Sequence record: MK327931.1
DNA length: 64,000 nt
Reading direction: 5' to 3' (one strand)
Origin: Escherichia phage vB_EcoM_G17
The first letter of the stretch is position 1. The number at the start of each line of letters is the position of its first letter. Positions 6,858 through 64,000 of the stretch are shown here, piece by piece. The notes under the pieces were generated by a model. The model saw nothing but the letters and a program-made list of their open reading frames with translations. It ran no database searches and had not been told where the DNA came from. Both the position numbers and the translations under genes were made by a program.

Positions 6858-7994
6858 TTACTTGTTAGCTTTTTCGGCAATTTCACGAAGAGTGTCTTCC
6901 AGTTCATAGGAAAGTTGTGCAATTTCCTGTTTAGCACGTTCACGTTCCAATTTGCCTTTTTTCTCTTCTTCAATAACTGCTTCAATACTGTCAATCATCG
7001 TTTTATGTACATTACGCAAGGTTTTAATATCCACAATACCACGGTTGTTTGCCTTTGCTGCGTCCAACATATTTGCTGCAACCATTTTAGAGTTAGTTTC
7101 CAAAAGACGGTTTGTCTCATTATCAATTAGATTGCCTAGTTCATTATCCTTACGTTGACGCTCGGAAATTAACTGTTCAGCCAATTGAGACTTCCATGCT
7201 GGAATAACAACAGATTTTAAATCTTCAAACTTAGAAACAGTGTTCAAGTTTACTTTTTTCATACTCATCAAACGTGGACCACTTAGCTCGCACATCATGA
7301 TAAGACGACGAATCTTATCTTCTTGTTTAGAAAGTGCTTCACAAATCATCTTTTGCTCTTGAATAGCAAAAGAGTCTACATTTTTGTCTGCTTGCATTTC
7401 TAATAATAATGCATCTTGTGTTTTAGTTACTTCTTCTAAACCAACTAATGTATCACGTAATTCAAACAAATATTCTTTGTTTTCATTATATGCTTTATCA
7501 AGCCATTCACATTCTCCGTGCTGGCGATTAATACCAGTTTGAAGAGTTTTCATAATTTCGTCAATTTGCTCTTTACTGTTTTTGTACTGATCACCTACTT
7601 TCTGTTGAGCATTAACAAAGAATTTCTTAATACGACCAACAATTGATTTATCTTCTTGAAGACTGTCAATATCAACTGCACGAGTCAACGTAAGAATTGT
7701 GGTGATTGATTTACCAAACTCGGTATTGTCATCCGTTACATTAACTTTAGACATAATTTCATCAGCCAAACGCCCAACAGCAGCACCAGCAGTTGTACCA
7801 ACAGTATTGATGTTTTGAACTGTTAGAGACATAGTATTTCCCTTAACATCTTTCAGTACTGGTAGTGATTTTGTAGTTTGGTTAAAAATATCACTTGCAT
7901 CAATTGTATGACCTTTAGACGCAGTTTTAGTAGTGCGTTTTGCTGATTTAGCTGCGGTGGATGCTTTTTTAGGATTGATTTCTTTCTCGGACAT
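6858..7994 (-). CDS. coiled-coil protein, possibly TelA-like (toxic anion resistance family)
   Basis: 378-aa ORF, largely helical; C-terminal NNRGIVDIKTL block recalled as resembling a conserved TelA/YceH motif (from memory, unverified). Confidence 0.4.
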   Translation of the reverse strand: MSEKEINPKKASTAAKSAKRTTKTASKGHTIDASDIFNQTTKSLPVLKDVKGNTMSLTVQNINTVGTTAGAAVGRLADEIMSKVNVTDDNTEFGKSITTILTLTRAVDIDSLQEDKSIVGRIKKFFVNAQQKVGDQYKNSKEQIDEIMKTLQTGINRQHGECEWLDKAYNENKEYLFELRDTLVGLEEVTKTQDALLLEMQADKNVDSFAIQEQKMICEALSKQEDKIRRLIMMCELSGPRLMSMKKVNLNTVSKFEDLKSVVIPAWKSQLAEQLISERQRKDNELGNLIDNETNRLLETNSKMVAANMLDAAKANNRGIVDIKTLRNVHKTMIDSIEAVIEEEKKGKLERERAKQEIAQLSYELEDTLREIAEKANK

Positions 7995-11458: not shown

Positions 11459-12103
11459 TTATTTGTAATATTTACCTAGTACTGAATAAATTTTCAATCT
11501 AAGATCTGTCCAGTTCTCAATGTATTCAAAATTACCAGTGTTCTTATACATTGAATTATGAGAACATCCCATCATAACTGACGGAATGCCAAGTCCCATT
11601 GCAGTTTCAATATTATTGATATAATCATCAATCATAAGTTTTACATCATATCTAGACTGTAAATCCTCTAGTGCTTGTTTCTTTGATTCATTCATTTCGA
11701 TAATAATAATCTCATCAAAACAGTTTTCACCAAATTCACGCATTAGGTTTACATTACGTAAAACTTCACCATAACCTTTTTTACCACATTTCGTTAGTAC
11801 TACAAATTTTTCTTTATGAAAACGATCACGTAGCTCTTGTACAATATCAACTGTATTTGGTTCGACTGGTTTTAACAACCCAAACAAATATGATTGTTGG
11901 TTGAATTGTTCAAGAATTTTTTTAACTTCTTGTTGGGGGACACCCAACCAATCGGATAAATCATATTCTAATGGGTATGGTGTTGATGGTGTGATATTAT
12001 AAGTTTGTTTTACAAACTCAGAAAGCATACCCATATGGTCCAATAGAACTTCATCACAATCAAAAACTATACAACGTGGTTTCATTACATGTTCCCCGAA
12101 CAA
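11459..12103 (-). CDS. HAD-superfamily hydrolase (5'-nucleotidase-like)
   Basis: HAD motif I FDCDEVL near the N-terminus, conserved T/S and K, C-terminal DD motif (MIDDY). Confidence 0.55.
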   Translation of the reverse strand: MFGEHVMKPRCIVFDCDEVLLDHMGMLSEFVKQTYNITPSTPYPLEYDLSDWLGVPQQEVKKILEQFNQQSYLFGLLKPVEPNTVDIVQELRDRFHKEKFVVLTKCGKKGYGEVLRNVNLMREFGENCFDEIIIIEMNESKKQALEDLQSRYDVKLMIDDYINNIETAMGLGIPSVMMGCSHNSMYKNTGNFEYIENWTDLRLKIYSVLGKYYK

Positions 12104-13074
12104 ATTAGGTCAATCTCACACAGTAAAGCACTAAGATTCATTTCACGGTCTGATACTGTTGCTTGCTTAACAACTGCATCACGAATTTTAACTTTAATCT
12201 TCATCAGTGTGATTTCATCAGTACTGAACATTTCAGCATTTCTGTACAAGTAAGAGAAAAATGCATCCATCTCATCATCAGGGATATTTTGTACAATTTG
12301 TTCACGCATTTGGCGAATGTTGCCTGCCTTTAATGCTTCAACAATTGCAGTACGATACCCTGCTGAATTTTCAATACTATCTTCAAGTTTTACTAGCTTA
12401 CCATCAACAACTGAACTTTGCAATACGTTTAGTGTTTTACGGAAATCAGGATAGGAAGCATTGATGTACTTTTGAACTTGTTCAACACTATCATCACTAC
12501 TCAAATCAACACCTTCTGCTAGAAGAATATTATAAATTCGAGTCATGAATTGTTCCATATCATGCTTTTCGATTGTAATAACTTGAACACGAGAAATGAT
12601 AGGTTTTTGAATTTTATGTGGTTCGTTACTTGTTAAAATAAAGCGAGCATTTTCATGATAGTCTTCCATTACACGTTTCAAACTACCTTGTGCTTTGTGG
12701 TTCATCTGCTCCATTTCTTCAAGAACAAAAATACGATATCTACCAAAACATGATAGCTTTGCTGCGGCATCGATTTTGTCACGAACAGCATCAATGCCTT
12801 CATCGGACATGTTAAGCGTGGTCACATCACTTGGATCAAGGTGTCCATTTTGAACTAGTCCATTAATTAGTACTTTGATCGCAGATGTTTTACCAGTTCC
12901 TGCTGGGCCAAAAAACCCAATATGTGGAATGTCACCAGTCTTAATCCATTCTTCCATTTTCTGGCGTAGTGCATCGTTTTTTGATACATAATCTTCCATT
13001 GATTGTGGGCGATATTTTTCAGTCCATAGTGTGGTCATTTGTATTTCCTTATGTGTACGTGTTATAGAATCCAA
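12085..13074 (-). CDS. 44: sliding-clamp loader large subunit (gp44-like, RFC-type AAA+)
   Basis: WTEKYRP N-terminal motif, Walker A GPAGTGKTS, Walker B-like VLEEME, SRV sensor (RFC box pattern). Confidence 0.8.
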   Translation of the reverse strand: MDSITRTHKEIQMTTLWTEKYRPQSMEDYVSKNDALRQKMEEWIKTGDIPHIGFFGPAGTGKTSAIKVLINGLVQNGHLDPSDVTTLNMSDEGIDAVRDKIDAAAKLSCFGRYRIFVLEEMEQMNHKAQGSLKRVMEDYHENARFILTSNEPHKIQKPIISRVQVITIEKHDMEQFMTRIYNILLAEGVDLSSDDSVEQVQKYINASYPDFRKTLNVLQSSVVDGKLVKLEDSIENSAGYRTAIVEALKAGNIRQMREQIVQNIPDDEMDAFFSYLYRNAEMFSTDEITLMKIKVKIRDAVVKQATVSDREMNLSALLCEIDLICSGNM

Positions 13075-13334
13075 TCGGCTGAATTATATAATAAAGCCGT
13101 GAAAAGTTCTTCTGTCATTTCCAATTGATTTAATAAAAAATTAAAAGAATTTGCCTTATTTTTAATCCCAGTACTTTCAGCTTGGGCTGATGCAACTAAT
13201 AAAACTTTAAACATATCATGTGAAACTTCATATACATATTTGGTATTTTTTCTATCTTCAAACATGAATCTTCCGTTTTTAGATACTAATGTTACATCCT
13301 TGAAACTAAATTTTCCATCATCAGTTATCATCAA
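13062..13334 (-). CDS. hypothetical protein
   Basis: 90-aa ORF. Confidence 0.45.
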   Translation of the reverse strand: MMITDDGKFSFKDVTLVSKNGRFMFEDRKNTKYVYEVSHDMFKVLLVASAQAESTGIKNKANSFNFLLNQLEMTEELFTALLYNSADWIL

Positions 13335-13387
13335 AATCTGTCCAAATAAAAAGCCCAGATATTCATCCGAGCTTTAATTATATTTTA

Positions 13388-13714
13388 TTAACGACCAAAG
13401 GTTAGCATTTTAGTTCGTGGATCTTCATCTGAAACTAAACTAACTGCGGCTGGATAATCAACCAAGTTTAATTCAATACCATCAACTTCAATAGTTCTTG
13501 ACCATCGACCATGATCAATTAAAATCCATTGACCTTCTTTAATATCAGTAATGTCTTCGCCTACAGAATAAACTTTTGCCCAGCGAGAACGAATACCTCT
13601 AATTTTACCGTCATCGTTTGTTAAAACGATACCACCTGCTGTTTTGCGTTCACCATGTTCCAGTTCAGTTACCAGTACTTTACCTTTACATGCAGTCATT
13701 ACTTTATTAGTCAT
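13388..13714 (-). CDS. GroES-like co-chaperonin (Cpn10 family)
   Basis: KVLVTELEHGERKTAGGIVL ... VYSVGED ... EGQWILIDHG matches the Cpn10 pattern. Confidence 0.65.
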   Translation of the reverse strand: MTNKVMTACKGKVLVTELEHGERKTAGGIVLTNDDGKIRGIRSRWAKVYSVGEDITDIKEGQWILIDHGRWSRTIEVDGIELNLVDYPAAVSLVSDEDPRTKMLTFGR

Positions 13715-13722
13715 TTAATATA

Positions 13723-14067
13723 TTACTCCTGATCTTTGGTTCTAGCTCGACGTGGTGCTTTCTTCTCTTCAGAAACCTCAGCTTCTTGTTCTTCGGGCTT
13801 AACTTCAAAACTCTCATCATCCCATACTTCATCCGTACCATGTTCAGTACTATGAAGTTGATGTTCAGGGATATAATCAGGAATTTGCATTTCTCGTTCT
13901 TTTTCTTGAATCAACTCTTCACGAGTTTTAATAATTGTTCCACCTGAACCGATTTTATCACCACGTGCGTTTAAATTAGCATTACCTAATGCTACCTGAT
14001 GTTGATTTTGGTACTTGAGCATATCCATGTCAATTGTTGTACCACGATAAGTTGTATGTTTAGACAT
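13723..14067 (-). CDS. hypothetical acidic protein
   Basis: 114-aa ORF. Confidence 0.5.
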   Translation of the reverse strand: MSKHTTYRGTTIDMDMLKYQNQHQVALGNANLNARGDKIGSGGTIIKTREELIQEKEREMQIPDYIPEHQLHSTEHGTDEVWDDESFEVKPEEQEAEVSEEKKAPRRARTKDQE

Positions 14068-14112
14068 ATCAAAATCCTTTTATTGTATGTGTGATATAAG
14101 CCTACAATAAAC

Positions 14113-14145
14113 ATTATATCACATGTTTTTCTACCATTTCAAAAA
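14113..14145 (-). promoter_or_regulatory. early promoter with extended -10 (TGTGATATAAT)
   Basis: minus-strand TGnTATAAT at 14113-14123, upstream of the start at 14067. Confidence 0.45.
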
Positions 14146-14649
14146 TTCGTTAACATCAAGTTCATACTTCAATGAATCTACCATATGTAGTCCAATCAAA
14201 AACAAACAGTATGATGCAACAGAGCTTCCACGACCTAGACCCCAAAAGATCTCATTTTCTTCCATATAATCAACAAGCCATATCATACATCTTAGTAGCT
14301 TTGTCATATTATAATATTCATATAAATCAAGTTCATACTCAACACGTTTTCGTGCTTCATCGGATGTGCATTTTTGTAAGAAAAAGTCACGCAGATTTAT
14401 ATTGTCGTATACTGGATCATATCGCCACAGTTCATGATTTTTATCATGCTCAATTGTATAATCCAGCATACGTTGTTCTAAGCCAAATTTTTTACAGTTA
14501 TCATTGAATTTCAACCTTTCAGGTTCATCAATTTCCTGCAATTGTAAGTACTGGATATCTGCACCGCAATTGATTGCATAAACAACTGCGTTAAGATTAC
14601 ATTTCACATCACCATTGGGACTTATAAATCTGTTTCCTTGTACTTTCAT
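14131..14649 (-). CDS. small protein homologous to the region of DNA polymerase III alpha (DnaE) just before the catalytic aspartates
   Basis: C-terminal FWGLGRGSSVASYCLFLIGLHMVDSLKYELDVNEFL aligns with E. coli DnaE [35 protein letters not shown]; preceding YELDLYEYYNMTKLL matches ELQVINQMGFPGYFL; the ORF stops before the PDFDVDF catalytic motif. Confidence 0.5.
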   Translation of the reverse strand: MKVQGNRFISPNGDVKCNLNAVVYAINCGADIQYLQLQEIDEPERLKFNDNCKKFGLEQRMLDYTIEHDKNHELWRYDPVYDNINLRDFFLQKCTSDEARKRVEYELDLYEYYNMTKLLRCMIWLVDYMEENEIFWGLGRGSSVASYCLFLIGLHMVDSLKYELDVNEFLKW

Positions 14650-23898: not shown

Positions 23899-24961
<1,063 letters not shown>

Positions 24962-40952: not shown

Positions 40953-42473
40953 TCATTTCCTTTGATTTAACCATTGCTTCATTGCATGAACACGATCAGT
41001 ACCAGCATGTGTCTGTGGATTCTGTATTTCGTTTTGTGTCGTAGAGTTAGGAGCACTATCAGTATTTAGTGTTACTGTATTGTCAGGTTGCACAGATGGT
41101 GATTTAGCTGCACCAGAAAGCGAATGACGTAATGTTTGCATAGTGCTGGGTGGTAACGCCATGTTCCCTCCACCAATCTTAGAAACACCGCTGTGACGGA
41201 ATCCATTACCTTCGGTTTCCATTTGTTGTACTGTAGTTGCGTGGTCAAGAACTCTCAATGAATCAATATCATATGACATACGCAAACGGGAACCTACTGC
41301 ACTACTGTTACGTGTTTTTTGGAAATCAAACCATAGTTCGCCAGTTTCTTTTTTTGCTTCAATATAAATTACGTTATCAGCAGTATAAATTTTTGAAATA
41401 CCACCAGCAATCTGACTTTGACTTTTCTTATCTTCGTCCATACCACTACGGTTAAACTGAGATGCAGTGAAAACAGTCAAATCCATTTTGGATGCAAGAG
41501 CACGTAATTCTTCTGATACAAATTTATCTTTAGTAAATGTATTGGATTTATCATTTGGTCCAAGACGATTAGAAGTTAATAGATCCAAATAGTCCACGCA
41601 TACATAATCAAGTTTGATTTCCATCTTAATTTGTAATTCACGTAGATAACTTTCAATATCGTCTGTGGTTGTTACAGATTCAGGTAAGCGTTTAATACGC
41701 AACATACCACTGTTTTTACCTTCAACTTTAACAGCAAATCCAATCTTTTCAGCTTCATTTTTTACGTTACTGAGTTTTGATTCAGTCATCATACCATAGA
41801 TACGAACAGCAACCAACTCTTCAGCTAGTTCAAGTGAAATGTATGCACCATTCATTCCAGCTTTCGCAAAGTTAACTGCTAAATTTTGCAGTACTACTGA
41901 TTTACCACCACCTGATGCAGCAGCAAAGATCTCTAACTCTCTACGCCCAAATCCACCGAAAAGTTTGTAATCAAGAGTTTCCCAACCACTCTTAAATGAT
42001 CCTTGCATTGTACTGAGTGAGCGGATTGTATCTTCAGGGTTTTCAAAAATATCCAAACCTAACTCATTCTGTACCGTTACCAACATTGCTTCTCGGATTA
42101 GTTCTTCGATTCCACCATATTTTTTCTGATGGACAAGTTCCATTCCTTTTTCAACGGCTAAAGCTAATGCTTTATGGCGACAAAATTCACCACAGGTATC
42201 AAGTACTGATTGTTTATGTAATTCTTGAACTTCATATTGATCGTATTGATAACCACCTTTAACTTCAATATCTTTCAAAGTAGGTGATGAACTATATTTT
42301 GCAGCATAATCATGCACGTATTGAATACTTTCATGAAATGTTTTATCAAAATATTCTGGTTTAAGGATATTTTTACAACGTACATATAAATCAGGATTAC
42401 TGAAAATCTGAGATAATAAGTATTGTTGTGCATTAATCCCATATTGTTTCACATCCACTGTGCTTTGAATCAT
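40953..42473 (-). CDS. 41: replicative DNA helicase (gp41-like, DnaB family)
   Basis: Walker A AASGGGKS, RecA-like core, 506 aa, adjacent to primase. Confidence 0.85.
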   Translation of the reverse strand: MIQSTVDVKQYGINAQQYLLSQIFSNPDLYVRCKNILKPEYFDKTFHESIQYVHDYAAKYSSSPTLKDIEVKGGYQYDQYEVQELHKQSVLDTCGEFCRHKALALAVEKGMELVHQKKYGGIEELIREAMLVTVQNELGLDIFENPEDTIRSLSTMQGSFKSGWETLDYKLFGGFGRRELEIFAAASGGGKSVVLQNLAVNFAKAGMNGAYISLELAEELVAVRIYGMMTESKLSNVKNEAEKIGFAVKVEGKNSGMLRIKRLPESVTTTDDIESYLRELQIKMEIKLDYVCVDYLDLLTSNRLGPNDKSNTFTKDKFVSEELRALASKMDLTVFTASQFNRSGMDEDKKSQSQIAGGISKIYTADNVIYIEAKKETGELWFDFQKTRNSSAVGSRLRMSYDIDSLRVLDHATTVQQMETEGNGFRHSGVSKIGGGNMALPPSTMQTLRHSLSGAAKSPSVQPDNTVTLNTDSAPNSTTQNEIQNPQTHAGTDRVHAMKQWLNQRK

Positions 42474-42495
42474 CTATGTTCCCTCATTATATGTA

Positions 42496-43551
42496 TTACA
42501 TCCATTTATCCGTTTGAGCTTTAATATAAAATGGCTCATCTACTATACTATCATGTATTAATTGTAAACAAAATAACCTACCAAATCGTGCACAAGCTTC
42601 TTCAAAGTCTTTGATATGACGTATTGTACTACCTTCTCTTACAGCACCAAAGTCTGGGAAGGAAACACTGAATCCATTTTCAAGTGCTTGGTCTATAGTT
42701 ATTAATCCATCTTTATCTCTATCTGGAACAATAACTATTTTTTTACCTTTTTGCTGTGCATCTTTTAATACATCAATCTGTACGTTTGATAATTTAAAGT
42801 TATTAGCAGATACACCACCCATTAATGCTGCGTCTAACGGACCCTCACATACTAAAATTGTTTTTATTCGTTCATCTTTTAATAAATCATAGTTATATAG
42901 TATATTAGTACTTACTTGATTTATGAACCTGTATGTACTTCCAGGATCTTTTAATTTATGTCGTGCAGTATAACCAATAATTTTACCATTCATGAAATAT
43001 GGAATAATAAATCTGTCATACATTTTATGTTCTTTATTAGGTGACCAATATAATTCTAAGTCTAACAGATATGGGTTTCTTTCATTGACATTATGCAAAA
43101 CACTTATAAATTCTTGTGGAATTTTATCTTCAGGTAAAGAAGCCCATTCCCAAAATGTTTTTGCATTTGATGGCAAATCACGTACTGTTACTCGGTCATA
43201 CAATTTTGATGCAACAGTTTCTTGTGCAGCAAAATCACCGCTGTCAACCATTTCTTTAATATAAAACTTAACTAATTCTATTTCTTTATCTTGTGCACCA
43301 AAAGAAATGAGCAAAGACTCCATATCTTTGCTCATATATTTTCCTGGTTGCCAACCAGTTTTTAAACTACAGTTAAAGCAGTTATATGAAACGGAACCAT
43401 CTGCATTGAACATATGATTACCACGGTGCTTTGTATCCGGCCTTGAATGTCCTCTGAACACACAAGCTGGACAGTTGTGTTGTGACCATGTACCAATCGC
43501 AGGTACTGGATCATTCATAATTTGTGCCATTATGTTTTGTACAGCGTTCAT
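42496..43551 (-). CDS. 61: DNA primase (gp61-like)
   Basis: N-terminal zinc-binding Cys/His cluster (CPAC ... CFNC) plus Toprim-like core; 351 aa. Confidence 0.8.
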   Translation of the reverse strand: MNAVQNIMAQIMNDPVPAIGTWSQHNCPACVFRGHSRPDTKHRGNHMFNADGSVSYNCFNCSLKTGWQPGKYMSKDMESLLISFGAQDKEIELVKFYIKEMVDSGDFAAQETVASKLYDRVTVRDLPSNAKTFWEWASLPEDKIPQEFISVLHNVNERNPYLLDLELYWSPNKEHKMYDRFIIPYFMNGKIIGYTARHKLKDPGSTYRFINQVSTNILYNYDLLKDERIKTILVCEGPLDAALMGGVSANNFKLSNVQIDVLKDAQQKGKKIVIVPDRDKDGLITIDQALENGFSVSFPDFGAVREGSTIRHIKDFEEACARFGRLFCLQLIHDSIVDEPFYIKAQTDKWM

Positions 43552-43580
43552 AAGTTAATCCTTGTCTTTTCTTACAAATG

Positions 43581-43613
43581 ATTATAGCACACCTTCTAGT
43601 TTTGTCTCATCTA
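43581..43613 (-). promoter_or_regulatory. early promoter with extended -10 (TGTGCTATAAT)
   Basis: minus-strand GTGTGCTATAAT about 30 nt upstream of the primase start. Confidence 0.5.
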
Positions 43614-44584
43614 CGTATCAAAATTTTAGGTACTGTTAGGAAAGGGTCATACACTTTTCGGACAGCAGCATAGTCATATGGTACTGGAACAATTTTGGGA
43701 TGAATAGCAACCACCAAACGTAACCACATATAATTTCCTTTAAAATTAAATGCTTGTATTCCGTCAAGTTCTTTTGGAAAACCTTCTGAATCAATTCCAT
43801 TTTCAATATAATCCTTTCCATCTAATTTAATAATAAACCATTTATAGTTTTCATTATCATTAGGTACGTTGTTACACAAGCACCCTTGTAGCTGTATTCT
43901 ACCAATAAATTTATCAAAATAGATTGCAATACTACTTAATCCATCTACTAATCCAAACTGCATTTGTGCTGGTAGTGGAGTTGATGCGAGAATATCATAT
44001 TCACCAATCATACCATTTCCAATTGGTTCATGATATAAACGCTTTATAGTTGTCCATGCTGGATTTTTATTAACTGATATTTCAGTACTGGGGACAAATA
44101 CAGGTGCTGCTTGGTCTGAAATTATTAGCTCTGCTGATGCCTCAAAGTTCATCCCTGTATATAGATATTGTGTTGGTTCTATAAGTGAACCATCCATTGT
44201 TACTTTAGTAATGCTCCATCTATATTTTGAACCAGGACTGGTATCTTGAATAACTCCTGCTGGAACAATACATCCATAATATACTTTCTTTTTATTTCCT
44301 AATGTTTGTCTTGCTTGTCCACTTTCTGATAACCAACTGGGTTCTTGTTTTTCTAATACAACATCAAATAGTTTAGTATTATTTCGTGCATCAAAAATCA
44401 TAAATGTAAGATATTCATTATCTTTCAATAAAGTATATTTTCCATCAGCGTTGTGAACAGTAAAAGATAAATTATTATTTGCCCCTCTATATATAGTTAG
44501 TTTTTCATTGCTATATGGCATATTAAAATTGCCCAATGATACTTCCTGATTATAAGGGTACATAAACACGCCGTGATGAGCCAT
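43607..44584 (-). CDS. late protein, putative virion structural protein
   Basis: start moved to the internal ATG at 44584 (GGAAGGA Shine-Dalgarno); palindromic late-promoter-like box upstream. Confidence 0.45.
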   Translation of the reverse strand: MAHHGVFMYPYNQEVSLGNFNMPYSNEKLTIYRGANNNLSFTVHNADGKYTLLKDNEYLTFMIFDARNNTKLFDVVLEKQEPSWLSESGQARQTLGNKKKVYYGCIVPAGVIQDTSPGSKYRWSITKVTMDGSLIEPTQYLYTGMNFEASAELIISDQAAPVFVPSTEISVNKNPAWTTIKRLYHEPIGNGMIGEYDILASTPLPAQMQFGLVDGLSSIAIYFDKFIGRIQLQGCLCNNVPNDNENYKWFIIKLDGKDYIENGIDSEGFPKELDGIQAFNFKGNYMWLRLVVAIHPKIVPVPYDYAAVRKVYDPFLTVPKILIRR

Positions 44585-44608
44585 AGTTTTTCCTTCCATA
44601 AATAATAG

Positions 44609-44622
44609 GTATAAATTTATAC
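44609..44622. promoter_or_regulatory. palindromic late-promoter-like element GTATAAATTTATAC (TATAAATT on both strands)
   Basis: perfect 14-nt palindrome between divergent genes; 7/8 match to TATAAATA in each direction. Confidence 0.4.
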
Positions 44623-44641
44623 TAATATTTATGGAACTAAT

Positions 44642-44995
44642 ATGAATCAATATAACACTATTCCACCATTCATTACTGTAATCCAGTATGATGGTAAAAC
44701 GTTTGTTGGTATCATCAAAATCAAAAGCAAACAGTATACAACTCTTTACTGTTTCGATGATATGGATGATTCAATGCAAGACGAATTGTTAGGTATAGCA
44801 CACGATTGGTGGTGGCAAAGTAATAGAACCATTCCAGTTTGTCTATTCTTTCAAGAAGAGATGGAGAAATTTGAACCGTACACACAGAGATTCGATACAC
44901 CGTCGGTGAATTTCGTATGTGGTCCAGTAGTTTCTTTAAGCAATTTGCCACAGAAACGCATCAAGCGTCGTAATGTGGCTCTTAAGAAGAAGTAA
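44642..44995 (+). CDS. hypothetical protein (plus strand)
   Basis: 117-aa ORF downstream of the palindromic box. Confidence 0.45.
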   Translation: MNQYNTIPPFITVIQYDGKTFVGIIKIKSKQYTTLYCFDDMDDSMQDELLGIAHDWWWQSNRTIPVCLFFQEEMEKFEPYTQRFDTPSVNFVCGPVVSLSNLPQKRIKRRNVALKKK

Positions 44996-45620
44996 GATGT
45001 TCAACTAAAGCATTTAGTTGTACAACAATCATTAAGCTATATGCGTAAGCATGTGGCTTTTTGAAATATCGTAATTTATTTCCTGCTTGGTCAGTGCCTA
45101 TAGTACTATAATCCCATATGGTAGCTTTAACTTCGTCCCATGTGTTCATACTTTGGCACTGCCTTTTTCCTGGGCGAATCATTGCAATAAACATTGCTAG
45201 TTCGTCTATAGATTTAGGCTTCCATACATTTAATAAAGTTACATGTTTTTTAATTTGCGATAGATGTTCTACAATTTCGGGTTCTAACAATAGATCCCAA
45301 TTTGGTTCCTGATTCATTAGTTCTTTTAAATGCTCTCTATCACGAACATACATGTAAGCTGACTGTGAAAGAATATCAACTTTTTGATACCCTAACCTTT
45401 CAGCTTCTTTATATTGTATACTTGCCAATCCAGTGATTGGATCAATAGGTATATTATCAAAATGAACACCACTATTATGGGGGATTAAACCATCCTCCGT
45501 AATTTTTTCAGTACTTCGCACACATGGAAGTTTAGCGATTACGCTTTTACTATCCTTGAAGTCAATGTCAATATCAGTTCGGGCTTTTCTATAATGTTTA
45601 GAATCGGTCGAATCCTGCAT
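44982..45620 (-). CDS. small protein resembling the fingers region of DNA polymerase III alpha (DnaE)
   Basis: ELAMFIAMIRPGK (compare DMIALVALFRPGP), KKPHAYAYSLMIVVQ (compare NKSHSAAYALVSYQ) and YQKVDIL (compare KFDFLGL) in DnaE order. Confidence 0.45.
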   Translation of the reverse strand: MQDSTDSKHYRKARTDIDIDFKDSKSVIAKLPCVRSTEKITEDGLIPHNSGVHFDNIPIDPITGLASIQYKEAERLGYQKVDILSQSAYMYVRDREHLKELMNQEPNWDLLLEPEIVEHLSQIKKHVTLLNVWKPKSIDELAMFIAMIRPGKRQCQSMNTWDEVKATIWDYSTIGTDQAGNKLRYFKKPHAYAYSLMIVVQLNALVEHLTSS

Positions 45621-45927
45621 TTTTTATTTGCTCCTGTAACTGTTTAACTGTATTAGTCAAAGTTGATATTTGATTCTCTAATAATCTACAATTTTGTTTT
45701 GTCTTTGCCAATTCTTGACTTAAACTGAAAAAGCGTTCTTCGTGTCTTTCTACCAAAGAAATAATTTTTTCAATACGAGCAGGATCATGAACTTGAAATG
45801 TTTTACCATCTAAAGTTATTTCAGTAATAGATCCTTGTCTAAGTAGAGATATTTGTTTTGATTTTTGTTCTTTAGGTACAGGTACATACCCTTCTGGTAT
45901 TTTATTATATATACTTTTTCCATTCAT
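45598..45927 (-). CDS. hypothetical protein
   Basis: 109-aa ORF. Confidence 0.45.
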   Translation of the reverse strand: MNGKSIYNKIPEGYVPVPKEQKSKQISLLRQGSITEITLDGKTFQVHDPARIEKIISLVERHEERFFSLSQELAKTKQNCRLLENQISTLTNTVKQLQEQIKNAGFDRF

Positions 45928-46634
45928 AATCCTGCCTCACATAGCATAATCTTAATTTCATCACAATCCTTTTTGTATTTTATAGTTTTGATTTCAAAAT
46001 AACTTGGATCGATGTATTTAAGTATATATTCAATTTCTGAGTTTGATAGTTTTTTAAAAAACTTATTAGTACTTTTTTTAGGAGCAAGCCAGATAATCCA
46101 AGGTGAAATTTTACCACTCTCAATCCATGCAATTGCACGGGCAGAACTTACATTTTCAAAGAAAGTATTCCATTGTACATTCAAATTTTCAGCCCATTCA
46201 ACCAGTGAGATAACACTTCTTGCAATTGCTTCTTTTGGGTGCTCGGCACGAATTGTTTTTAATATCCATTCATCTTTTGCTTTATATGTACTCCATTCCG
46301 TGATTGGTTTGTTATTGATAATCAAGTACTTTACAAACTCGTCCACATTAATAATATCTCTATTATTCAAATAGTATTCGGCAAAACTATAAAAATCATT
46401 AAAGTACTTTGACTTTATAAAAGCAATAAAAGGCTCTACGCCTTTTTTAAATGGGAACTTATTCAATTCCATAAATTGCATATATATACGAAAAGCCTCC
46501 ATCATCTGGCGGCTTTGGCGGTCTTCGTATCGGTCACGTTTTATACATTTATGTGTGTTTACAGTTTCTTCACGTTTAAATTCACGATCACAAAATCTAC
46601 AGGTATATACTTTATTACTTGATTTCTTTGCCAT
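45924..46634 (-). CDS. hypothetical protein with N-terminal C2H2-like zinc finger
   Basis: CRFCDREF ... HKC near the N-terminus; 236 aa. Confidence 0.5.
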   Translation of the reverse strand: MAKKSSNKVYTCRFCDREFKREETVNTHKCIKRDRYEDRQSRQMMEAFRIYMQFMELNKFPFKKGVEPFIAFIKSKYFNDFYSFAEYYLNNRDIINVDEFVKYLIINNKPITEWSTYKAKDEWILKTIRAEHPKEAIARSVISLVEWAENLNVQWNTFFENVSSARAIAWIESGKISPWIIWLAPKKSTNKFFKKLSNSEIEYILKYIDPSYFEIKTIKYKKDCDEIKIMLCEAGL

Positions 46635-47460
46635 ATTTTTTACATTCTTCTTTAAACAATTTCATCATAGATTTCTTTTCATTATCTTGAAAACCATTAT
46701 TGTCAAGAAATGTCTCAAATGTTTTTTTATCATACTGCAATAGAACAATTTTGTACTCATCTTCATTCATTTGAGTAGATATAGTATCAGGTTGTGAGCT
46801 TTTAATTAACTCAAATAATTCGTTATTTGCCTTTTTGAAATTCTTAGAAAAGTTTAACCAGTTACGTGGCATTTCTTGTCCACCAATCATATCATGGACT
46901 GAACACATAAGCTGATATACTAATTCTGGATGTTCTTTCATATCCCAAAATCCATCATTAACCATATCATTTAGCATAATAAGTTGGTATTTGACAACTT
47001 CAGTATCTACTAATGAAACAATTTCTGAACCTGATACGCCAAATTCGACCATTGAGGATATTAATTTTTGTGCGTCATCTTTTGATTGGACTGCAAATTT
47101 AATACGCCAATCATAATCACTATGACAGTACTTAGTTACTGATGAAACATTTGTCCCTGAAGACTTTAATTCAGTAACTAGTTCAGTCAGTGCTTCTTTA
47201 CCACCAGATTTCCATTTTCCAAATACACTTTCAACTTTACTACTAGGGTAGGTTACTTGTAACGAATCATCTAAAGAGCTTACCCATCGCAAAACAGTAT
47301 ATGGAGTAAACTCTTTTCGTTCTTTTTCGGTCATGTCATTATAGTACTTATAATCAGCACGGTCAATGTGTTTTAGAAATTCAGCAATAGAAAAAGAATG
47401 CTGTGTTGGTTTTTCATCATCATCGACCGACTTATTTTTAATATCACTGAAATCAAACAC
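46615..47460 (-). CDS. hypothetical protein
   Basis: 281-aa ORF. Confidence 0.5.
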   Translation of the reverse strand: MFDFSDIKNKSVDDDEKPTQHSFSIAEFLKHIDRADYKYYNDMTEKERKEFTPYTVLRWVSSLDDSLQVTYPSSKVESVFGKWKSGGKEALTELVTELKSSGTNVSSVTKYCHSDYDWRIKFAVQSKDDAQKLISSMVEFGVSGSEIVSLVDTEVVKYQLIMLNDMVNDGFWDMKEHPELVYQLMCSVHDMIGGQEMPRNWLNFSKNFKKANNELFELIKSSQPDTISTQMNEDEYKIVLLQYDKKTFETFLDNNGFQDNEKKSMMKLFKEECKKYGKEIK

Positions 47461-47464
47461 TATT

Positions 47465-47962
47465 TTATACTCCTAGATACAAATCTTGAATTTTTTCGTT
47501 TTCATCTGCAAAGTACACACATGGTGGATTTTCACCACTATGTAGTGGGACGCATAGTAAATTCTTTTTAGGTAACATTGGTATCTGCCACTTTGTAGTT
47601 AATGCAAATACACGTAGTACTTTGACTGGTTCAAACTTAGGATACATTGAACGGATAGGATTGTAAACAAAAGCTTTTGGTTCTTTCATGTTAAGAATGT
47701 TTTCAATTGTACACATCTCAACCATACCAGTTTCTTCATCACCTAACATAATTTGCCATCCTAGAGGCACTTGAATAATCTTTTCACCAATTTGAAGATC
47801 AGCACTAATACTATTAAATGATACGGTGTTTAGAATATGTCTAAAATAAAAATCAGATTCACCATTTGGGCTTAGATCCAAAACACAATACATTTCTTCA
47901 GGGATATGTTCTGTTACTAAATCCATGTCAAAAGAATTATTTTCAGGTGTTAATACGTTCAT
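47465..47962 (-). CDS. hypothetical protein
   Basis: 165-aa ORF. Confidence 0.5.
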   Translation of the reverse strand: MNVLTPENNSFDMDLVTEHIPEEMYCVLDLSPNGESDFYFRHILNTVSFNSISADLQIGEKIIQVPLGWQIMLGDEETGMVEMCTIENILNMKEPKAFVYNPIRSMYPKFEPVKVLRVFALTTKWQIPMLPKKNLLCVPLHSGENPPCVYFADENEKIQDLYLGV

Positions 47963-47971
47963 GTCATCTCC

Positions 47972-48400
47972 TTAGTACTGCGAATCTTCTTCGTCATCAT
48001 AATATTCTTCATCATCTTGGTCTTCTACCCCATAAAATTCAAGTCCATAAGTTTCACACATCTCTTGAATTTTATCTACATCAGTATCCAGATATGAATC
48101 AAAATTACCACTTAGACTTACTACATCAATAAAAGTTTTCGTGTCAGTACTTGCATAGATGATATCATATTTCAATGATTCTACTTTAGAATCAATTCGT
48201 GTCTGTAATTCATAGATATTAATCCAAGAATCACTATCAATATTACATCTCCATACGTTAGTATCATCCGTTTCTAGCTCAGGTATATAGTCAAGAGAAG
48301 ATACCATGTCATCCATAATACCATCATCGTTCAACAATACATCCATAACTTCTAAAGTTTCTTGGTCACAAATAAAAGCAATACTAGATCTCAATTCCAT
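47972..48400 (-). CDS. hypothetical acidic protein
   Basis: 142-aa ORF, Asp/Glu-rich. Confidence 0.5.
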   Translation of the reverse strand: MELRSSIAFICDQETLEVMDVLLNDDGIMDDMVSSLDYIPELETDDTNVWRCNIDSDSWINIYELQTRIDSKVESLKYDIIYASTDTKTFIDVVSLSGNFDSYLDTDVDKIQEMCETYGLEFYGVEDQDDEEYYDDEEDSQY

Positions 48401-48434
48401 TTTATTTTACATCCTTGTTGTTGTCATATGACAC

Positions 48435-48467
48435 ATTATATCACAAACAGCGGGTTTATCCCGCTGT
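48435..48467 (-). promoter_or_regulatory. early promoter with extended -10 (TGTGATATAAT)
   Basis: minus-strand TGnTATAAT about 30 nt upstream of the start at 48400. Confidence 0.45.
48448..48466 (-). terminator. terminator hairpin at the end of uvsW
   Basis: stem cagcggg/cccgctg overlapping the uvsW stop. Confidence 0.4.
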
Positions 48468-49940
48468 GTTTTCCCAATCTTTAACATCTATTATACTATG
48501 AGGATATTGTGCTTCCTTATAGTAAGCTAAACGTTCTCGTAAATGCTTAGCACTATACTTATTAGAACCACTAATATCATATATTTCTACGTGGTCTTTA
48601 TCTTCTGCTCGGCGTAATCCACGTCCAATTGACTGTATAGTTCTTACAAAACTTTTTCCTGGCTCAATCAATACTACATTATATAACCTTGAAATACTAA
48701 TACCAGTACTGGCAACGCCGTATGTCGCAATAAGTATTTTATTATCAGCCCAACGAATTTCACCATAAGATGATTCTCGATCTTTCTTTTTAGTTTCTCC
48801 ACGAACGAATTCTGATTTGGGAATGCCTAAAAATTCACATAGCAACTCACCTGCTTCAAGTCTATCTACTAAAACTAAAGTGTTTCCTGATTCAGATAAC
48901 GCAGATATCAATGACGCTACATATGCCATCCTATCTCTGTCAGTTACTAAGTATTTCAACTCTTCAGCATATGATGCAAACTTCATACTACTTTTTAGTT
49001 TGATGCAATTCACATTACATGTACTTAGTATTTGTTTATCTTGTAATTCCTTTGCAGTTATTTTAAATATAACATCACCAACATTACATTTGATTTTCGC
49101 GGCAACTACCGGATCTTTAGGAATTGTTCCAGTAAGACCCCAACGTAATGGTACGTTATTCATAACTTTAGAAAGTACTTGAACTAATGCGTCACCGCCT
49201 GCACCTTGACACTCATCAACGATAACACAAACTACTCCATCGATAAAATCATTCACGTCTTGTTCAGTTAATTCAATTTCACCTTTCTTGGTTTTCTTCC
49301 ATAGAGAGTTAAATGATTGCCAAGTCGTAATAGTATGTTGGTGACCAAAATCTTTTTGTGAACCATAGAACATGCCAGTATCCAACCCACACATAATGTA
49401 GTCATCATATGTTTGTTGTACTAAGTCAGTACTTGGTACTATTATAACAGAACGTCCATACTCTTGCACTTTCTTTGACAATGCAGCAGTAATGAGAGTT
49501 TTACCTGCACCAGTAGCTGCCAATAGCAGTCCGTGTGGATTAGCCAAACATGCATTAACCGCATTAACTTGATGTTCACGTAGTTTTATGGATTTACCTT
49601 CCATGTGGTGTCCTGCACCGAATACAACATCACTAAAAATATCTTCATCAATGGGGTCAAATTTAAATCCATAATCTACCCTATGATCTACTAATTCAAT
49701 GTCAATCTTAGCTTCATCAAGAATAGGCAATAACTTATCTAACATATGATAATAAGTTGTTCCGCCTAAATTCATAAACTGAACTTTACCATCCCAACGT
49801 CCAATACGTCCTGCTGGTGTGAACTTTGCATATGGTAACACATATTCAGTTGCACGAATCATCTTTTGTCTAATTGAGGGATCAAGTCCCTCAAATTTAC
49901 AATTCACCTCATCCAATAAGGTTAACTTACAAGTTTTCAT
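48456..49940 (-). CDS. uvsW: UvsW-like SF2 helicase
   Basis: Walker A ATGAGKT, Walker B IVDECQ, helicase C-terminal motifs; 494 aa. Confidence 0.8.
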   Translation of the reverse strand: MKTCKLTLLDEVNCKFEGLDPSIRQKMIRATEYVLPYAKFTPAGRIGRWDGKVQFMNLGGTTYYHMLDKLLPILDEAKIDIELVDHRVDYGFKFDPIDEDIFSDVVFGAGHHMEGKSIKLREHQVNAVNACLANPHGLLLAATGAGKTLITAALSKKVQEYGRSVIIVPSTDLVQQTYDDYIMCGLDTGMFYGSQKDFGHQHTITTWQSFNSLWKKTKKGEIELTEQDVNDFIDGVVCVIVDECQGAGGDALVQVLSKVMNNVPLRWGLTGTIPKDPVVAAKIKCNVGDVIFKITAKELQDKQILSTCNVNCIKLKSSMKFASYAEELKYLVTDRDRMAYVASLISALSESGNTLVLVDRLEAGELLCEFLGIPKSEFVRGETKKKDRESSYGEIRWADNKILIATYGVASTGISISRLYNVVLIEPGKSFVRTIQSIGRGLRRAEDKDHVEIYDISGSNKYSAKHLRERLAYYKEAQYPHSIIDVKDWENTAG

Positions 49941-49955
49941 CCATGATTACCTTTA

Positions 49956-50774
49956 TTAATTAGTTCGAGTATTATATTCGTACTCAAATGTATATACTAA
50001 ATCTTTATCACAGTTAGGGTTACTTGCATCTAAAATGTCACTATTAGTAATCATCCATTCAATGTAATTCAATGGAACTGTACTCATTGGCTCACCTTTG
50101 TGTTTACCAAATGGCATGAATTGATAACGCATTGGTGTGTTGCAGAAAGTTACAATTTGCTCACCAATATCACCATTAGGTTCGATATGTCCACGTTCGA
50201 TTGCAATTTCAACTAATTTGATTAGAACCTGATAACACATAAACACATCGTCTTTTGCTGCGTGTGCATTAACAGGTCGATGAACATCACGATAACATCC
50301 AAACTTATACCACAAATAACTTAGAGTTAAGTTTTTAAATTCAATATCTTCTGCGAACATTTTCTTAGCAAGACGAAGGGTACAAATCCATTTATTTTCA
50401 TCAAGTAAGTACTGTGAAATTGAGTTACGATATTTATATTCGTTATCTACCATCATTCTACGGTCAAATTGTACATTATGACCAACAAAATACTTACGGC
50501 ATCCCATAAGTGCATCAATGTTATCTAAATCATCTTTATACCCAACACAATTAGCTACATCCTCAGTACTGATAAAGTGCACAGCAGATGCCTCTGGTGG
50601 AATATCTTTCAAGGGTTTGTATCTCAATGTATAGTTATCAATAGTATCAATGTTTTCATGTGAAGTATGTGGATACGAGATACTAAATTCAATAATATCA
50701 TCTTCACTCTCAACCCCAGTAGTTTCAGTATCTAGAACTGCTACATTTGATAAAAACTCATTTAATTTTGTCAT
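49956..50774 (-). CDS. DEDDh 3'-5' exonuclease (DnaQ/RNase T-like)
   Basis: LDTETTG (exo I), GHNVQFDRRM (exo II), HAAKDDVFMC (exo III). Confidence 0.7.
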   Translation of the reverse strand: MTKLNEFLSNVAVLDTETTGVESEDDIIEFSISYPHTSHENIDTIDNYTLRYKPLKDIPPEASAVHFISTEDVANCVGYKDDLDNIDALMGCRKYFVGHNVQFDRRMMVDNEYKYRNSISQYLLDENKWICTLRLAKKMFAEDIEFKNLTLSYLWYKFGCYRDVHRPVNAHAAKDDVFMCYQVLIKLVEIAIERGHIEPNGDIGEQIVTFCNTPMRYQFMPFGKHKGEPMSTVPLNYIEWMITNSDILDASNPNCDKDLVYTFEYEYNTRTN

Positions 50775-60420: not shown

Positions 60421-61157
60421 TATCTATATGAACGAAATCCTTCAGGTAAACCAGGTAGCTTGTCTAATCCTTCGTTCGCACTCACTAGCTTTGTGTCGTA
60501 ATCATCACTGAAATCATCCGTAGCAAGTTTACGCCCCAAGTCTCTAACAAAGTTATCTATGATTTCTTCTTCATCATTACCTGGATGACCTTCGGCTTTC
60601 AACTTTTTCCAGAAATATTCGTTATAGTCAAAAACAAACTCAACTTCATTTGTTTCAGGATCAAGAACCACATCCAAATCAATCCAAGGCTCTTTTCGAA
60701 GTGTATATATCTCCTTTGAATATTCACTTTGAGTGATTTCTTCATAACGATATGCAAATTCTATAGCCTTAAGCCTTTTTTCATCACCGTCTGGCATTAA
60801 CTCAATGATTTCCATATCATATTCTTTTTCAGTAATAGAACCAGTACTTAGTTTTGCATCAAGAACTTTAACATTATACTGTTCACGAGTAATTTTAGAA
60901 TATTTTAGTTCAACATCAAGTACAGTAATTAGATATTCCAAATCTCCAATTACGCTATATTTCTTTTTAATATCCAATTGGGCCAGTTCAACTTCATATG
61001 GAGTTAGATATGTCAATTCAGCAACTTTCATATCAGCTTCATAATCATCATTGTAGTAGTATGCTTTAGCTATCTCTTTTGCCTTTCCAGAAAGTCCCCA
61101 GTGAGCAGGGACCATCCAAAATGGAATAAATTTCTTTTTAGCCATTTTTCTTACCAA
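60420..61157 (-). CDS. hypothetical protein (in the late unit with the GroES-like gene)
   Basis: 245-aa ORF. Confidence 0.5.
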   Translation of the reverse strand: MVRKMAKKKFIPFWMVPAHWGLSGKAKEIAKAYYYNDDYEADMKVAELTYLTPYEVELAQLDIKKKYSVIGDLEYLITVLDVELKYSKITREQYNVKVLDAKLSTGSITEKEYDMEIIELMPDGDEKRLKAIEFAYRYEEITQSEYSKEIYTLRKEPWIDLDVVLDPETNEVEFVFDYNEYFWKKLKAEGHPGNDEEEIIDNFVRDLGRKLATDDFSDDYDTKLVSANEGLDKLPGLPEGFRSYR

Positions 61158-61437
61158 AAATCTCTTCGATTTTCATTACATAATATGTATCTTCACCACC
61201 ACCAAGATCTTCAGTCAGAGGTGTGTTCAAAGATGAACGACCAAACACAACCATATCACCTTCTTTAATATTATGTTCTGCAAGTTGTCCGTTCGGAAGA
61301 ATTTTACCTGGACCAACGGAAATTACCATCCCAATACATGGTGGTTCAACATTACCTAGAATAATACCACCAGTACTTTTATTCTGTGCTTCAATTTGTC
61401 GAACAAGAACGTAATCATTAATCATTTTAATTTTCAT
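61138..61437 (-). CDS. GroES-like co-chaperonin (gp31-like, Cpn10 family)
   Basis: MKIKMINDYVLVRQIEAQNKSTGGIIL ... GMVISVGPG ... EGDMVVFG; start taken at the internal ATG. Confidence 0.6.
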   Translation of the reverse strand: MKIKMINDYVLVRQIEAQNKSTGGIILGNVEPPCIGMVISVGPGKILPNGQLAEHNIKEGDMVVFGRSSLNTPLTEDLGGGEDTYYVMKIEEIFGKKNG

Positions 61438-61438
61438 A

Positions 61439-61645
61439 TTAGTAACCTCCAGTATTTGCAAACCATTTTCCACGGAAATAAAGATTAGCACCCTTATCAC
61501 CTGGAGTGAACACTTCCAACTTCATAGTTTTTTCACCATTACATTTAGGACAATCATGAGGTTCATCACGATTTGCAATTTTAACAATTTTTTCCATGCT
61601 ATGTTTGCATTCTTCTTTTTCACAACGATATGTATATAATGGCAT
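61439..61645 (-). CDS. FmdB-family zinc-ribbon protein
   Basis: MPLYTYRCEKEECKH ... CPKCNG pattern. Confidence 0.5.
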   Translation of the reverse strand: MPLYTYRCEKEECKHSMEKIVKIANRDEPHDCPKCNGEKTMKLEVFTPGDKGANLYFRGKWFANTGGY

Positions 61646-62992: not shown

Positions 62993-64000
62993 TTACCAAG
63001 TGAAGAATCCATTGTTTACTGACGCAGTACTTTTTTCATGAATACCAATATCCATATCCAAAATACCAAAAATATTCTCTAATTTTTTAGTTAGAACAAT
63101 CTCTTCCATTTTTTCAGTATCAAATGGTAGTTCCAAGAACCATTCTGGTAGATACTCAACACAGTCAATTGGATATCCAACAGCTTTAATTCCCATAGGA
63201 TTATCTTTTAAGTTACAGACAATTACTTTTGTTCCATCTGTTACTTCTGGAACAGATTTATCATCATAAACTTCACGTAGACGGTTCCATTGGATACCAG
63301 CAAGAACGTGACCAACTTTACACTTACCAGTTAGCTGATATTCAGCCTCTAAATTAGTGTAGTTTTTTACAGTTTTTGGTGAACCTTTTTCATGTACAGG
63401 CATATCCTTAAATACGTCCTTAAACTCACGTACACGCTGTTTTAGCTGCTGTTCACTCTCACCTACCAGTAATGCGATTAGAGTCTCTTCTAGGAAGTTC
63501 TGGATGTATTTTGGCGTGTCTGAGCGTTTAATTTCAAGACCCATCGCTTTGATTTCACCTGGTTTACCATCAATATCTTTACGGAACCCATCTTCCCAGT
63601 ACTTCAGAATTGCATAACGTTTTTTCTTCAAGAATAGGCCACGTGAACCAACCATCTCAAGGTCTGCACCAACAATCTTACCTTTTTCAATACCAGTGTT
63701 GAACATCTCATGCATAAATGATGGGAAAGATTCACCAACTTCTTCACCAATTTTAATATACATATCAACAATCTCTTCTTTAGATAGATTATATGGAATA
63801 CCTTGTTCTTTCAGATAATGCGTTACACTAAAGTAAACTGAGTCAGTATCACCATAAATTACTGAACCACCTTGGTGATTATATACACCAGTAGTAATCT
63901 CATTGATACGACTTGCCATATGTTTGGTCATAGAACGTCCAGTTAATGTTACGGATTGACCTAAACGTTTGTCAAAGAAACGAGAACCTTTGTTCAATAG
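62993..64000 (-). CDS. 43: DNA polymerase (family B, gp43-like), C-terminal part; gene continues beyond the window end
   Basis: Pol B motif C YGDTDS near the start of the fragment; frame open to position 64000. Confidence 0.85.
   Translation of the reverse strand, partial: LLNKGSRFFDKRLGQSVTLTGRSMTKHMASRINEITTGVYNHQGGSVIYGDTDSVYFSVTHYLKEQGIPYNLSKEEIVDMYIKIGEEVGESFPSFMHEMFNTGIEKGKIVGADLEMVGSRGLFLKKKRYAILKYWEDGFRKDIDGKPGEIKAMGLEIKRSDTPKYIQNFLEETLIALLVGESEQQLKQRVREFKDVFKDMPVHEKGSPKTVKNYTNLEAEYQLTGKCKVGHVLAGIQWNRLREVYDDKSVPEVTDGTKVIVCNLKDNPMGIKAVGYPIDCVEYLPEWFLELPFDTEKMEEIVLTKKLENIFGILDMDIGIHEKSTASVNNGFFTW

Follow-up and report, generated by a model that had tools for sequence, protein, structure and literature searches.

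A stand-alone DnaE-like protein of an Asteriusvirus jumbo phage is probably the nucleotide-binding half of a split, minimal DNA polymerase III alpha

In a 64,000-nucleotide stretch of Escherichia phage vB_EcoM_G17 (record MK327931.1; hereafter the window), the open reading frame (ORF) at 14131-14649 on the minus strand encodes, from ATG to stop, a protein of 172 amino acids (aa), which we call the N-unit. We suggest, with a probability of roughly 0.8, that it is the N-terminal, nucleotide-binding subunit of a minimal C-family nucleotidyltransferase, resembling the alpha subunit of DNA polymerase III (Pol III alpha) and made of two polypeptides; the other polypeptide would be the 212-aa product of a gene at 44982-45620, also on the minus strand, which we call the C-unit. 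The pair was described by Iyer, Anantharaman, Krishnan, Burroughs and Aravind (2021, Viruses 13:63; PMC7824862, section 3.4.1) as a split minimal Pol III alpha for group 2.2 jumbo phages, and is therefore already known. What is new here is an independent confirmation with predicted structures, an analysis of selection, a strict pattern in which the two genes are never fused and never adjacent, two conserved gene neighbourhoods, and the presence of the pair outside jumbo phages; this is confirmation and detail, not discovery.

Judged by its nucleotide identity to known genomes, the source phage is an Asteriusvirus (PBECO4/121Q/Sharanji-like), a RaK2-like jumbo myovirus that is only distantly T4-like: the window matches Escherichia phage Sharanji at 100% identity over 3 kb, PBECO4 (99.9%), SP27 and further ~350-kb Asteriusvirus jumbo phages at 99.6-100%, and phage 121Q at 93.8%. 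The start of the N-unit gene overlaps an upstream 103-aa ORF by 41 nucleotides (nt). In the protein, which contains the peptide FWGLGRGSSVASYCLFLIGLHMVDSLKYELDVNEFL, residues 1-57 are an N-terminal extension specific to the family, and residues ~58-172 are equivalent to the beginning of the Pol III alpha palm (~280-394 in E. coli DnaE), with its helices, strand beta1, the GS loop and the helices that follow. Public records label the protein 'DNA polymerase III alpha subunit', 'DNA-pol3-alpha domain-containing protein' or 'DNA polymerase', and the PHROGs database has a family dedicated to it (phrog_11127, 171 positions).

A first-pass annotation, made by a model from the letters of the window, had read the ORF as a homologue of the DnaE segment that lies just before the catalytic site, and this is borne out by Pfam, NCBIfam, hhalign and Foldseek. 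The Pfam model PF07733 (DNA_pol3_alpha) matches with an E value of 1.9e-9 and 37.9 bits (cut-off 23.9 bits), placing N-unit residues 92-171 (QKCTSDEARKRV...NEFLK; 14137-14376, minus strand) on profile positions 16-95 of 260. Residues 58-170 are also recognised by several NCBIfam DnaE models (best E value 1.6e-8); their scores are far under the full-length cut-offs, because just ~110 residues of the N-unit match. With a profile built from 37 diverse members of the family, the PDB sequences found are exclusively Pol III alpha chains (E value 3e-3), residues 100-172 falling on E. coli alpha 320-392, and hhalign gives a match to E. coli DnaE (probability 86%, E value 4.8e-6, 22% identity over 77 aligned columns). 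Structure prediction points the same way: the AlphaFold model has a mean predicted local distance difference test score (pLDDT) of 88.8, and its top 16 Foldseek matches in the PDB are all Pol III alpha or PolC.

Family alignments place the GRGS motif of the N-unit (G139, R140, G141 and S142, equivalent to E. coli DnaE G361-S364) at 14224-14235 on the minus strand. These four residues and G137, together equivalent to E. coli G359-S364, are invariant in 34-37 diverse family members. GxGRGS is the triphosphate-binding 'GS' loop of the Pol-beta-like nucleotidyltransferase palm, and is among the most conserved parts of the N-unit. GRGS and PDFDVDF begin at residues 361 and 400 of E. coli DnaE, respectively. 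The C-terminus of the N-unit falls at N393/P394 on this scale, ~8 residues short of the catalytic Asp401/Asp403, so the ORF does stop before these aspartates, as had been proposed. The catalytic Asp triad (E. coli D401, D403 and D555) is absent from the N-unit polypeptide and sits in the separate C-unit. In the predicted structure of the N-unit, residues ~131-140, which form strand beta1 in DnaE, are not assigned as a strand, and the pLDDT there falls to 74, the sole dip in confidence in the conserved half. This would fit an edge strand that needs a partner sheet, and the N-unit on its own thus looks incomplete.

We located the C-unit through the PHROG-based RefSeq annotation of PBECO4, where it belongs to phrog_11778, 'DNA polymerase'; a phmmer search with the single E. 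coli DnaE sequence against all ORFs of the window missed it (E value 5.4). The protein comprises the remaining palm with the catalytic strands and a reduced fingers domain, without a thumb. It opens with MQDSTDSKHYRKARTDIDIDF, equivalent to the DnaE motif MPDFDVDF (PDIDIDF in M. tuberculosis DnaE1), which holds the first two catalytic aspartates. In the profile alignment its DIDID (D16-D20; 45561-45575) corresponds to DnaE PDFDVDF (E. coli D401, D403 and D405), and K80-V81-D82 (45375-45383) to K553-F554-D555, which includes the third catalytic Asp. Two finger motifs follow: R149-P150-G151 (45168-45176) for F-R639-P-G-P, and H190-A-Y-A-Y194 (45039-45053) for N-K-S-H-x-A-x-Y (E. coli 757 onward); all four lie on the minus strand. 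Among four stretches reported, the C-unit family profile is colinear with M. tuberculosis DnaE1 at three motifs, namely DIDID at DnaE1 412-424, GY-x-K-x-DFL...RPG at 568-669 (including the K553/D555 equivalents) and F-K-K-x-H-A-x-A-Y (KSHA) at 764-787. D16, D18, D20, K80, D82, R149, P150, H190 and Y194 are invariant in 24 diverse members. The AlphaFold model (pLDDT 93.4) retrieves Pol III alpha in all of its top 12 Foldseek matches, with probabilities of up to 1.0, and superimposes on the palm and fingers of the polymerase across ~190 residues.

The spacing from DIDID to KVD is 59 residues in the C-unit, compared to 147 between the equivalent motifs in E. coli; in the latter the thumb is inserted at this place, and the thumb insertion is therefore missing from the C-unit. 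Neither unit has room for, or a match to, PHP, thumb, beta-clamp-binding motif or OB fold, the only Pfam matches being PF07733 in the N-unit and a weak PF17657 in the C-unit; the tau-binding region of cellular alpha is likewise missing from both proteins. The C-unit is labelled 'putative membrane protein' in several GenBank records (GAP32, CBB, the pEa_SNUABM phages and Muenster), and 'hypothetical' in others. The membrane label is almost certainly an annotation error; the mislabelling in many records arises because the sequence match is weak and the Pfam and NCBIfam models fail to detect the protein.

The two proteins are complementary at the break point: the N-unit stops at the equivalent of DnaE N393/P394, and the motif of the C-unit begins at P400/D401. 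Members of the N-unit family have 0-12 residues beyond EFLK, C-units have 0-15 residues ahead of DIDID, and many start with M-D-I-D-I-D itself. The halves could in principle be joined covalently by recoding, by splicing or by a split intein, as happens with DnaE in cyanobacteria, but we regard this as effectively refuted. No intein N- or C-fragments are seen at the break point, where neither unit's end is long enough to hold one, and the two genes lie 11-224 kb apart in different phages. In the window they are 30.3 kb apart on the same strand, with the C-unit upstream in the direction of transcription, and read-through or recoding therefore cannot join the halves.

The two genes also occur in the same phages. 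By tblastn, 93 phage records contain the N-unit and 95 the C-unit; the genus counts are alike for both except for one additional Klebsiella record for the C-unit. A fused query of both units hits 304 places in 211 phage records, implying that 93 records have two places; all 60 listed jumbo-phage rows show two. In Alishewanella phage Slickus01 (OQ508957.1), for which tblastn listed the C-unit alone, a profile search of the whole genome found the N-unit as well (79799-80314, E value 2.5e-17), 11 kb away from the C-unit at 68349-68957; both are annotated merely as hypothetical proteins. Slickus01 is a 141-kb, non-jumbo myovirus, and the split enzyme thus extends beyond jumbo phages. The hosts of phages in the family include Escherichia, Pseudomonas, Agrobacterium, Xanthomonas, Salicola and Alishewanella, with the same conserved core throughout. 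The separation between the genes varies from 11 kb in Slickus01, ~14 kb in CM1 and 30-34 kb in RaK2-like phages to ~44 kb in the PA5oct group and 116-224 kb in SCTP-2, Atu_ph07 and Phosso.

The N-unit is under strong purifying selection. Compared to phage 121Q its gene has 21 synonymous and 0 non-synonymous differences, and the ratio of non-synonymous to synonymous substitution rates (dN/dS) is 0.027 against ph0011 and 0.013 against fEgEco12, giving a range of 0-0.03 over the three relatives. A profile search of 1.84 billion representative proteins found 483 N-unit clusters (50% identity) with E values of at most 1e-30; the best 150 of these all measure 156-196 aa, and the match reaches the C-terminus or stops within a few residues of it. 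In 80 viral loci from IMG/VR, the sample used for each unit in all neighbourhood counts below, the N-unit ORF runs 0 residues past the end of the profile in 69 loci and at most 8 in the rest. Homologues in XacN1, Atu_ph07 and PA5oct/MIJ3-type phages are only 27-37% identical, yet they are 169-182 aa long and share a common end point and gene order. Relatives thus carry a fragment whose length and end point are conserved. It had also been proposed that the ORF is a remnant of a horizontally acquired dnaE. The protein is indeed truncated relative to DnaE, and the genome paper on phage CBB called its 172-aa homologue truncated; nonetheless, the low dN/dS, the length and end point kept over the 483 clusters (150 listed) and in all 80 viral loci, and the synteny kept among such divergent lineages leave the idea of a decaying remnant with practically no probability, and we consider it refuted.

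The other meaning proposed by the first-pass annotation was that of a Pol III alpha mimic or decoy; as such, the protein would titrate a partner in the host replisome. Mimics of host proteins are common in phages, and the N-unit does resemble a piece of host DnaE. However, its identity to E. coli DnaE is low (the 22% given above), and the segment is an internal piece of the palm and not one of the surfaces of alpha known to bind epsilon, beta or tau. In addition, the conserved core is the same in phages that infect very different hosts, and the seemingly missing catalytic part, with invariant active-site residues, is encoded at 44982-45620 by a gene that co-occurs with that of the N-unit. We found no evidence for a decoy and consider it very improbable. 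The earlier interpretation thus stands as far as a stand-alone DnaE homologue beside a family B polymerase is concerned, while both meanings attached to it, remnant and decoy, find no support. The family B polymerase itself was correctly recognised: 62993-64000 on the minus strand encodes the C-terminal part of the T4-type enzyme (gp512 in PBECO4), which is cut by the window end, and matches PF00136 over 62993-63997 with an E value of 5.5e-11.

We suggest the following arrangement for the split polymerase. The N-unit would supply two long helices, strand beta1, the GxGRGS triphosphate-binding loop and the helices that follow; the C-unit would take up at the next element, the DIDID strand (D401/D403 in E. 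coli), and then add the rest of the sheet with K-x-D (K553/D555) and cut-down fingers with the RPG and K-x-H-A-x-A-Y motifs. To complete one active site, both proteins would have to associate non-covalently, because there is no intein, the genes lie 30 kb apart and the C-unit is upstream. We infer physical association, polymerase activity and a biological role from these features; most likely, the complex would be a small accessory DNA polymerase, acting at the fork or in repair beside the family B polymerase.

The halves might also form one enzyme that is not of the replicative type, such as a non-processive polymerase for primer extension or gap filling, a terminal or untemplated transferase, or a nucleotidyltransferase with another substrate. 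The absence of thumb, clamp-binding region, OB fold and PHP, with a total of 384 aa compared to 1160 aa for E. coli DnaE, speaks for this, as does the complete family B polymerase that the phage already owns; the primase gene that adjoins the C-unit in 62 of its 80 loci would fit primer extension. On the other hand, the RPG and K-x-H-A-x-A-Y motifs, which contact the template and the incoming deoxynucleoside triphosphate in C-family polymerases, are invariant, and the C-unit superimposes on both palm and fingers. We thus think a non-replicative enzyme unlikely, if worth keeping in mind; it refines our explanation without contradicting it.

A more far-reaching version of the split polymerase can be put forward tentatively, at slightly less than even odds. 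The pair may be the smallest known C-family polymerase, an obligately split heterodimer of ~44 kDa whose halves are inherited with a clamp-loader/GroES-like block and a primase/helicase block, and which works at the fork beside the family B enzyme, for instance by extending primers, much as DnaE extends primers for PolC in Bacillus. The strict and ancient separation of the genes, which were neither fused nor adjacent in any of the collections covered, might then reflect control at the level of assembly, or else an ancestral state of Pol III alpha from before fusion. The ancestral pre-fusion state is a speculation of Iyer et al. 2021 (PMC7824862).

Several points weigh against pairing the two proteins as one polymerase. 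The C-unit family profile finds only a weak match in the PDB with hmmsearch (E value 0.1), hhalign of the C-unit against a single DnaE sequence gives an E value of 0.011 and a probability of 3.8%, the match to the Pfam finger domain PF17657 is weak (E value 0.045), and an NCBIfam search of the C-unit gives no match. The assignment of the C-unit thus follows from motifs and predicted structure, while its significance by sequence comparison is weak. Evidence for the pairing from gene fusions or operons, of the Rosetta-stone kind, is missing too: the fused tblastn query finds both halves in one place in 0 of 211 phage records, 0 of the 80 C-unit loci (1.20 Mb) have an N-unit within their flanks of up to 10 kb, and 0 of the 80 N-unit loci (1.30 Mb) have a C-unit. 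The same fused query against 5.8 billion proteins gave no fusion among the top 120 matches, which are stand-alone C-units (157-220 aa, at most 74% coverage) and N-units (28% coverage). Without a thumb or a clamp-binding region, templated processive synthesis is not assured. Finally, we found no experimental study of the split enzyme in the searchable literature, and the omics paper on PA5oct omits both genes.

Each unit has a conserved neighbourhood of its own. Downstream of the N-unit, a conserved block at 12085-14067 on the minus strand holds a 114-aa protein (13723-14067; phrog_14844, no Pfam match) directly next to it, a GroES/gp31-like (Cpn10) co-chaperonin (13388-13714; PF00166, E value 2e-5), a 90-aa ORF and a gp44/RFC-type clamp-loader ATPase (12085-13038/13074). 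The 114-aa protein is found in 79 of the 80 loci and the GroES-like gene in 73; the clamp loader is found in 57, and 58 loci reach at least 3 kb downstream. The C-unit lies in a conserved replication block (40953-49940, minus strand), with a DEAD/DEAH helicase upstream (48456-49940; 65 of 80 loci), a primase subunit downstream (42496-43551) and an AAA ATPase further on (40953-42473; 51 of 80). Also upstream are p236 (45924-46634; phrog_11058), in 77 of the 80 loci, p165 in 72 and p281 in 63. Both settings support, through guilt by association, a role at the fork for both units.

These neighbourhoods also bear on whether the N-unit acts independently of the C-unit, for example by binding nucleotides or serving as an adaptor within the clamp-loader module. 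The conserved genes beside it are those of the clamp loader and the GroES-like protein and not that of the C-unit, the two units are never adjacent, and the extension of ~57 residues at the N-terminus is specific to the family. Such a role is nonetheless improbable in our view: the N-unit ends inside a fold, leaving a lone beta-strand and a GS loop without the catalytic sheet, the strand itself is not assigned in the predicted structure (residues 131-140, pLDDT 74), the most conserved residues are those of the GRGS loop of the catalytic site, and its distribution among phages agrees with that of the C-unit, including in the most divergent genome examined.

The 114-aa protein has a motif RG-x-x-(V/I)-D-h-(D/E)...N-A-R-G-D...G-G near its N-terminus and a charged tail of low complexity. 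With its beginning ...RGTTIDMDML and its conserved D-x-D/E and ARGD, it was itself a suspect for the missing catalytic strand, and was rejected: the C-unit has far better motif and structural matches, the C-unit profile gives no significant match to the 114-aa ORF, and Slickus01 carries both units without a detectable homologue of it. The gap of 63 nt after the stop of the N-unit (14068-14130) contains an AT-rich inverted repeat, ATGTGATATAA...TTATATCACA, and overlaps a sigma-70-like promoter match (11/12, with an extended -10) at 14142-14113 on the minus strand, which probably marks the start of the transcription unit of the 114-aa gene. Promoter and terminator scans around both units performed no better than on shuffled sequence.

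Next to the C-unit, p236 has weak C2H2 zinc-finger-like matches at its N-terminus and lies immediately upstream in most lineages; it may belong to the same machine as an additional component. A 109-aa 'virion structural' gene between p236 and the C-unit was detected in just 8 of the 80 loci. A DnaQ/RNase T-type 3'-5' exonuclease (49956-50774, minus strand; PF00929, E value 7e-15; phrog_192, 'DNA polymerase exonuclease subunit'), with a short C-terminal segment resembling QSregVF_b, is encoded 4.3 kb upstream of the C-unit. This enzyme may serve the mini-polymerase as a proofreader, but we detected it close to the C-unit in no more than 8 of the 80 loci.

Some further features of the window may be recorded. 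A G+C-rich, terminator-like hairpin at 17392-17372 (minus strand) is directly followed by the T4 late-promoter word TATAAATA at 17361-17354, and both sit upstream of the gene for an 806-aa virion protein; no terminator-like site was seen between this hairpin and the N-unit, two genes downstream. The word TATAAATA is rarer in the window than expected by chance (4 occurrences vs 10.7). A second GroES-like gene lies at about 61138-61500 on the minus strand, annotated 'co-chaperonin GroES' in PBECO4 (gp507). The annotation of PBECO4 also supplies the labels TelA-like 'tellurite resistance' for 6858-7994, 'translation initiation factor' for 24458-24961 and 'ATP-dependent protease' for 23899-24444, all on the minus strand.

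If the pair is truly active, these phages carry two unrelated polymerases at once, one of family B (archaeo-eukaryotic-type) and one of family C (bacterial-type), and the latter would define a minimal core of the bacterial replicase, useful for studies on the evolution of Pol III alpha and for enzyme engineering. There is also a warning for annotation, as the widespread label of the N-unit, 'DNA polymerase III alpha subunit', treats it like a truncated gene, while its partner is mostly 'hypothetical' or a 'membrane protein'. In the earlier literature, the CBB genome paper noted only a truncated alpha subunit and the Atu_ph07 paper listed a Pol III subunit.

The closest known system is the group 2.2 split Pol III alpha, which is the same: an N-terminal unit that binds nucleoside triphosphates and a C-terminal unit that binds Mg2+ and the template, encoded by separate, distant genes in RaK2-like, Atu_ph07-like and related phages beside a family B polymerase, and without other Pol III domains. 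In the original description the arrangement was predicted computationally, and the enzyme may cooperate with the family B polymerase in the synthesis of one strand or in repair (PMC7824862). In accordance with this, the stand-alone N-unit described here ends before the Mg2+-binding strand, the C-unit lies at a distance in the same genome, and the phage is a T4-related, RaK2-like one that encodes a family B polymerase together with an RFC-type clamp loader (12085-13074).

With cellular DnaE, Pol III alpha and PolC, the phage proteins share the Pol-beta-like palm, the GS loop, the Asp triad, the K553 equivalent and the finger motifs, and the predicted folds superimpose. The phage enzyme differs in being made of two polypeptides with 384 aa in total (~1100-1450 aa in the cellular enzymes), in an identity of 15-20%, and in lacking the PHP, thumb, beta-clamp-binding, OB and tau-binding domains.

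For the RNA polymerase of phiKZ-like jumbo phages, both assembly and activity are experimentally established. Like the split Pol III alpha, this beta/beta'-type enzyme is a core polymerase made as several polypeptides that are thought to assemble (PMC7824862). It differs in its unrelated fold, a double-psi beta-barrel, and the split Pol III-like assembly is a predicted one. In the DnaE of cyanobacteria, a C-family polymerase is likewise encoded by two distant genes; there, the protein is broken at a different place, and intein trans-splicing ligates its halves. Unlike cyanobacterial DnaE, the phage proteins have no intein sequence, and their break falls between the helices of the GS loop and the DxD strand.

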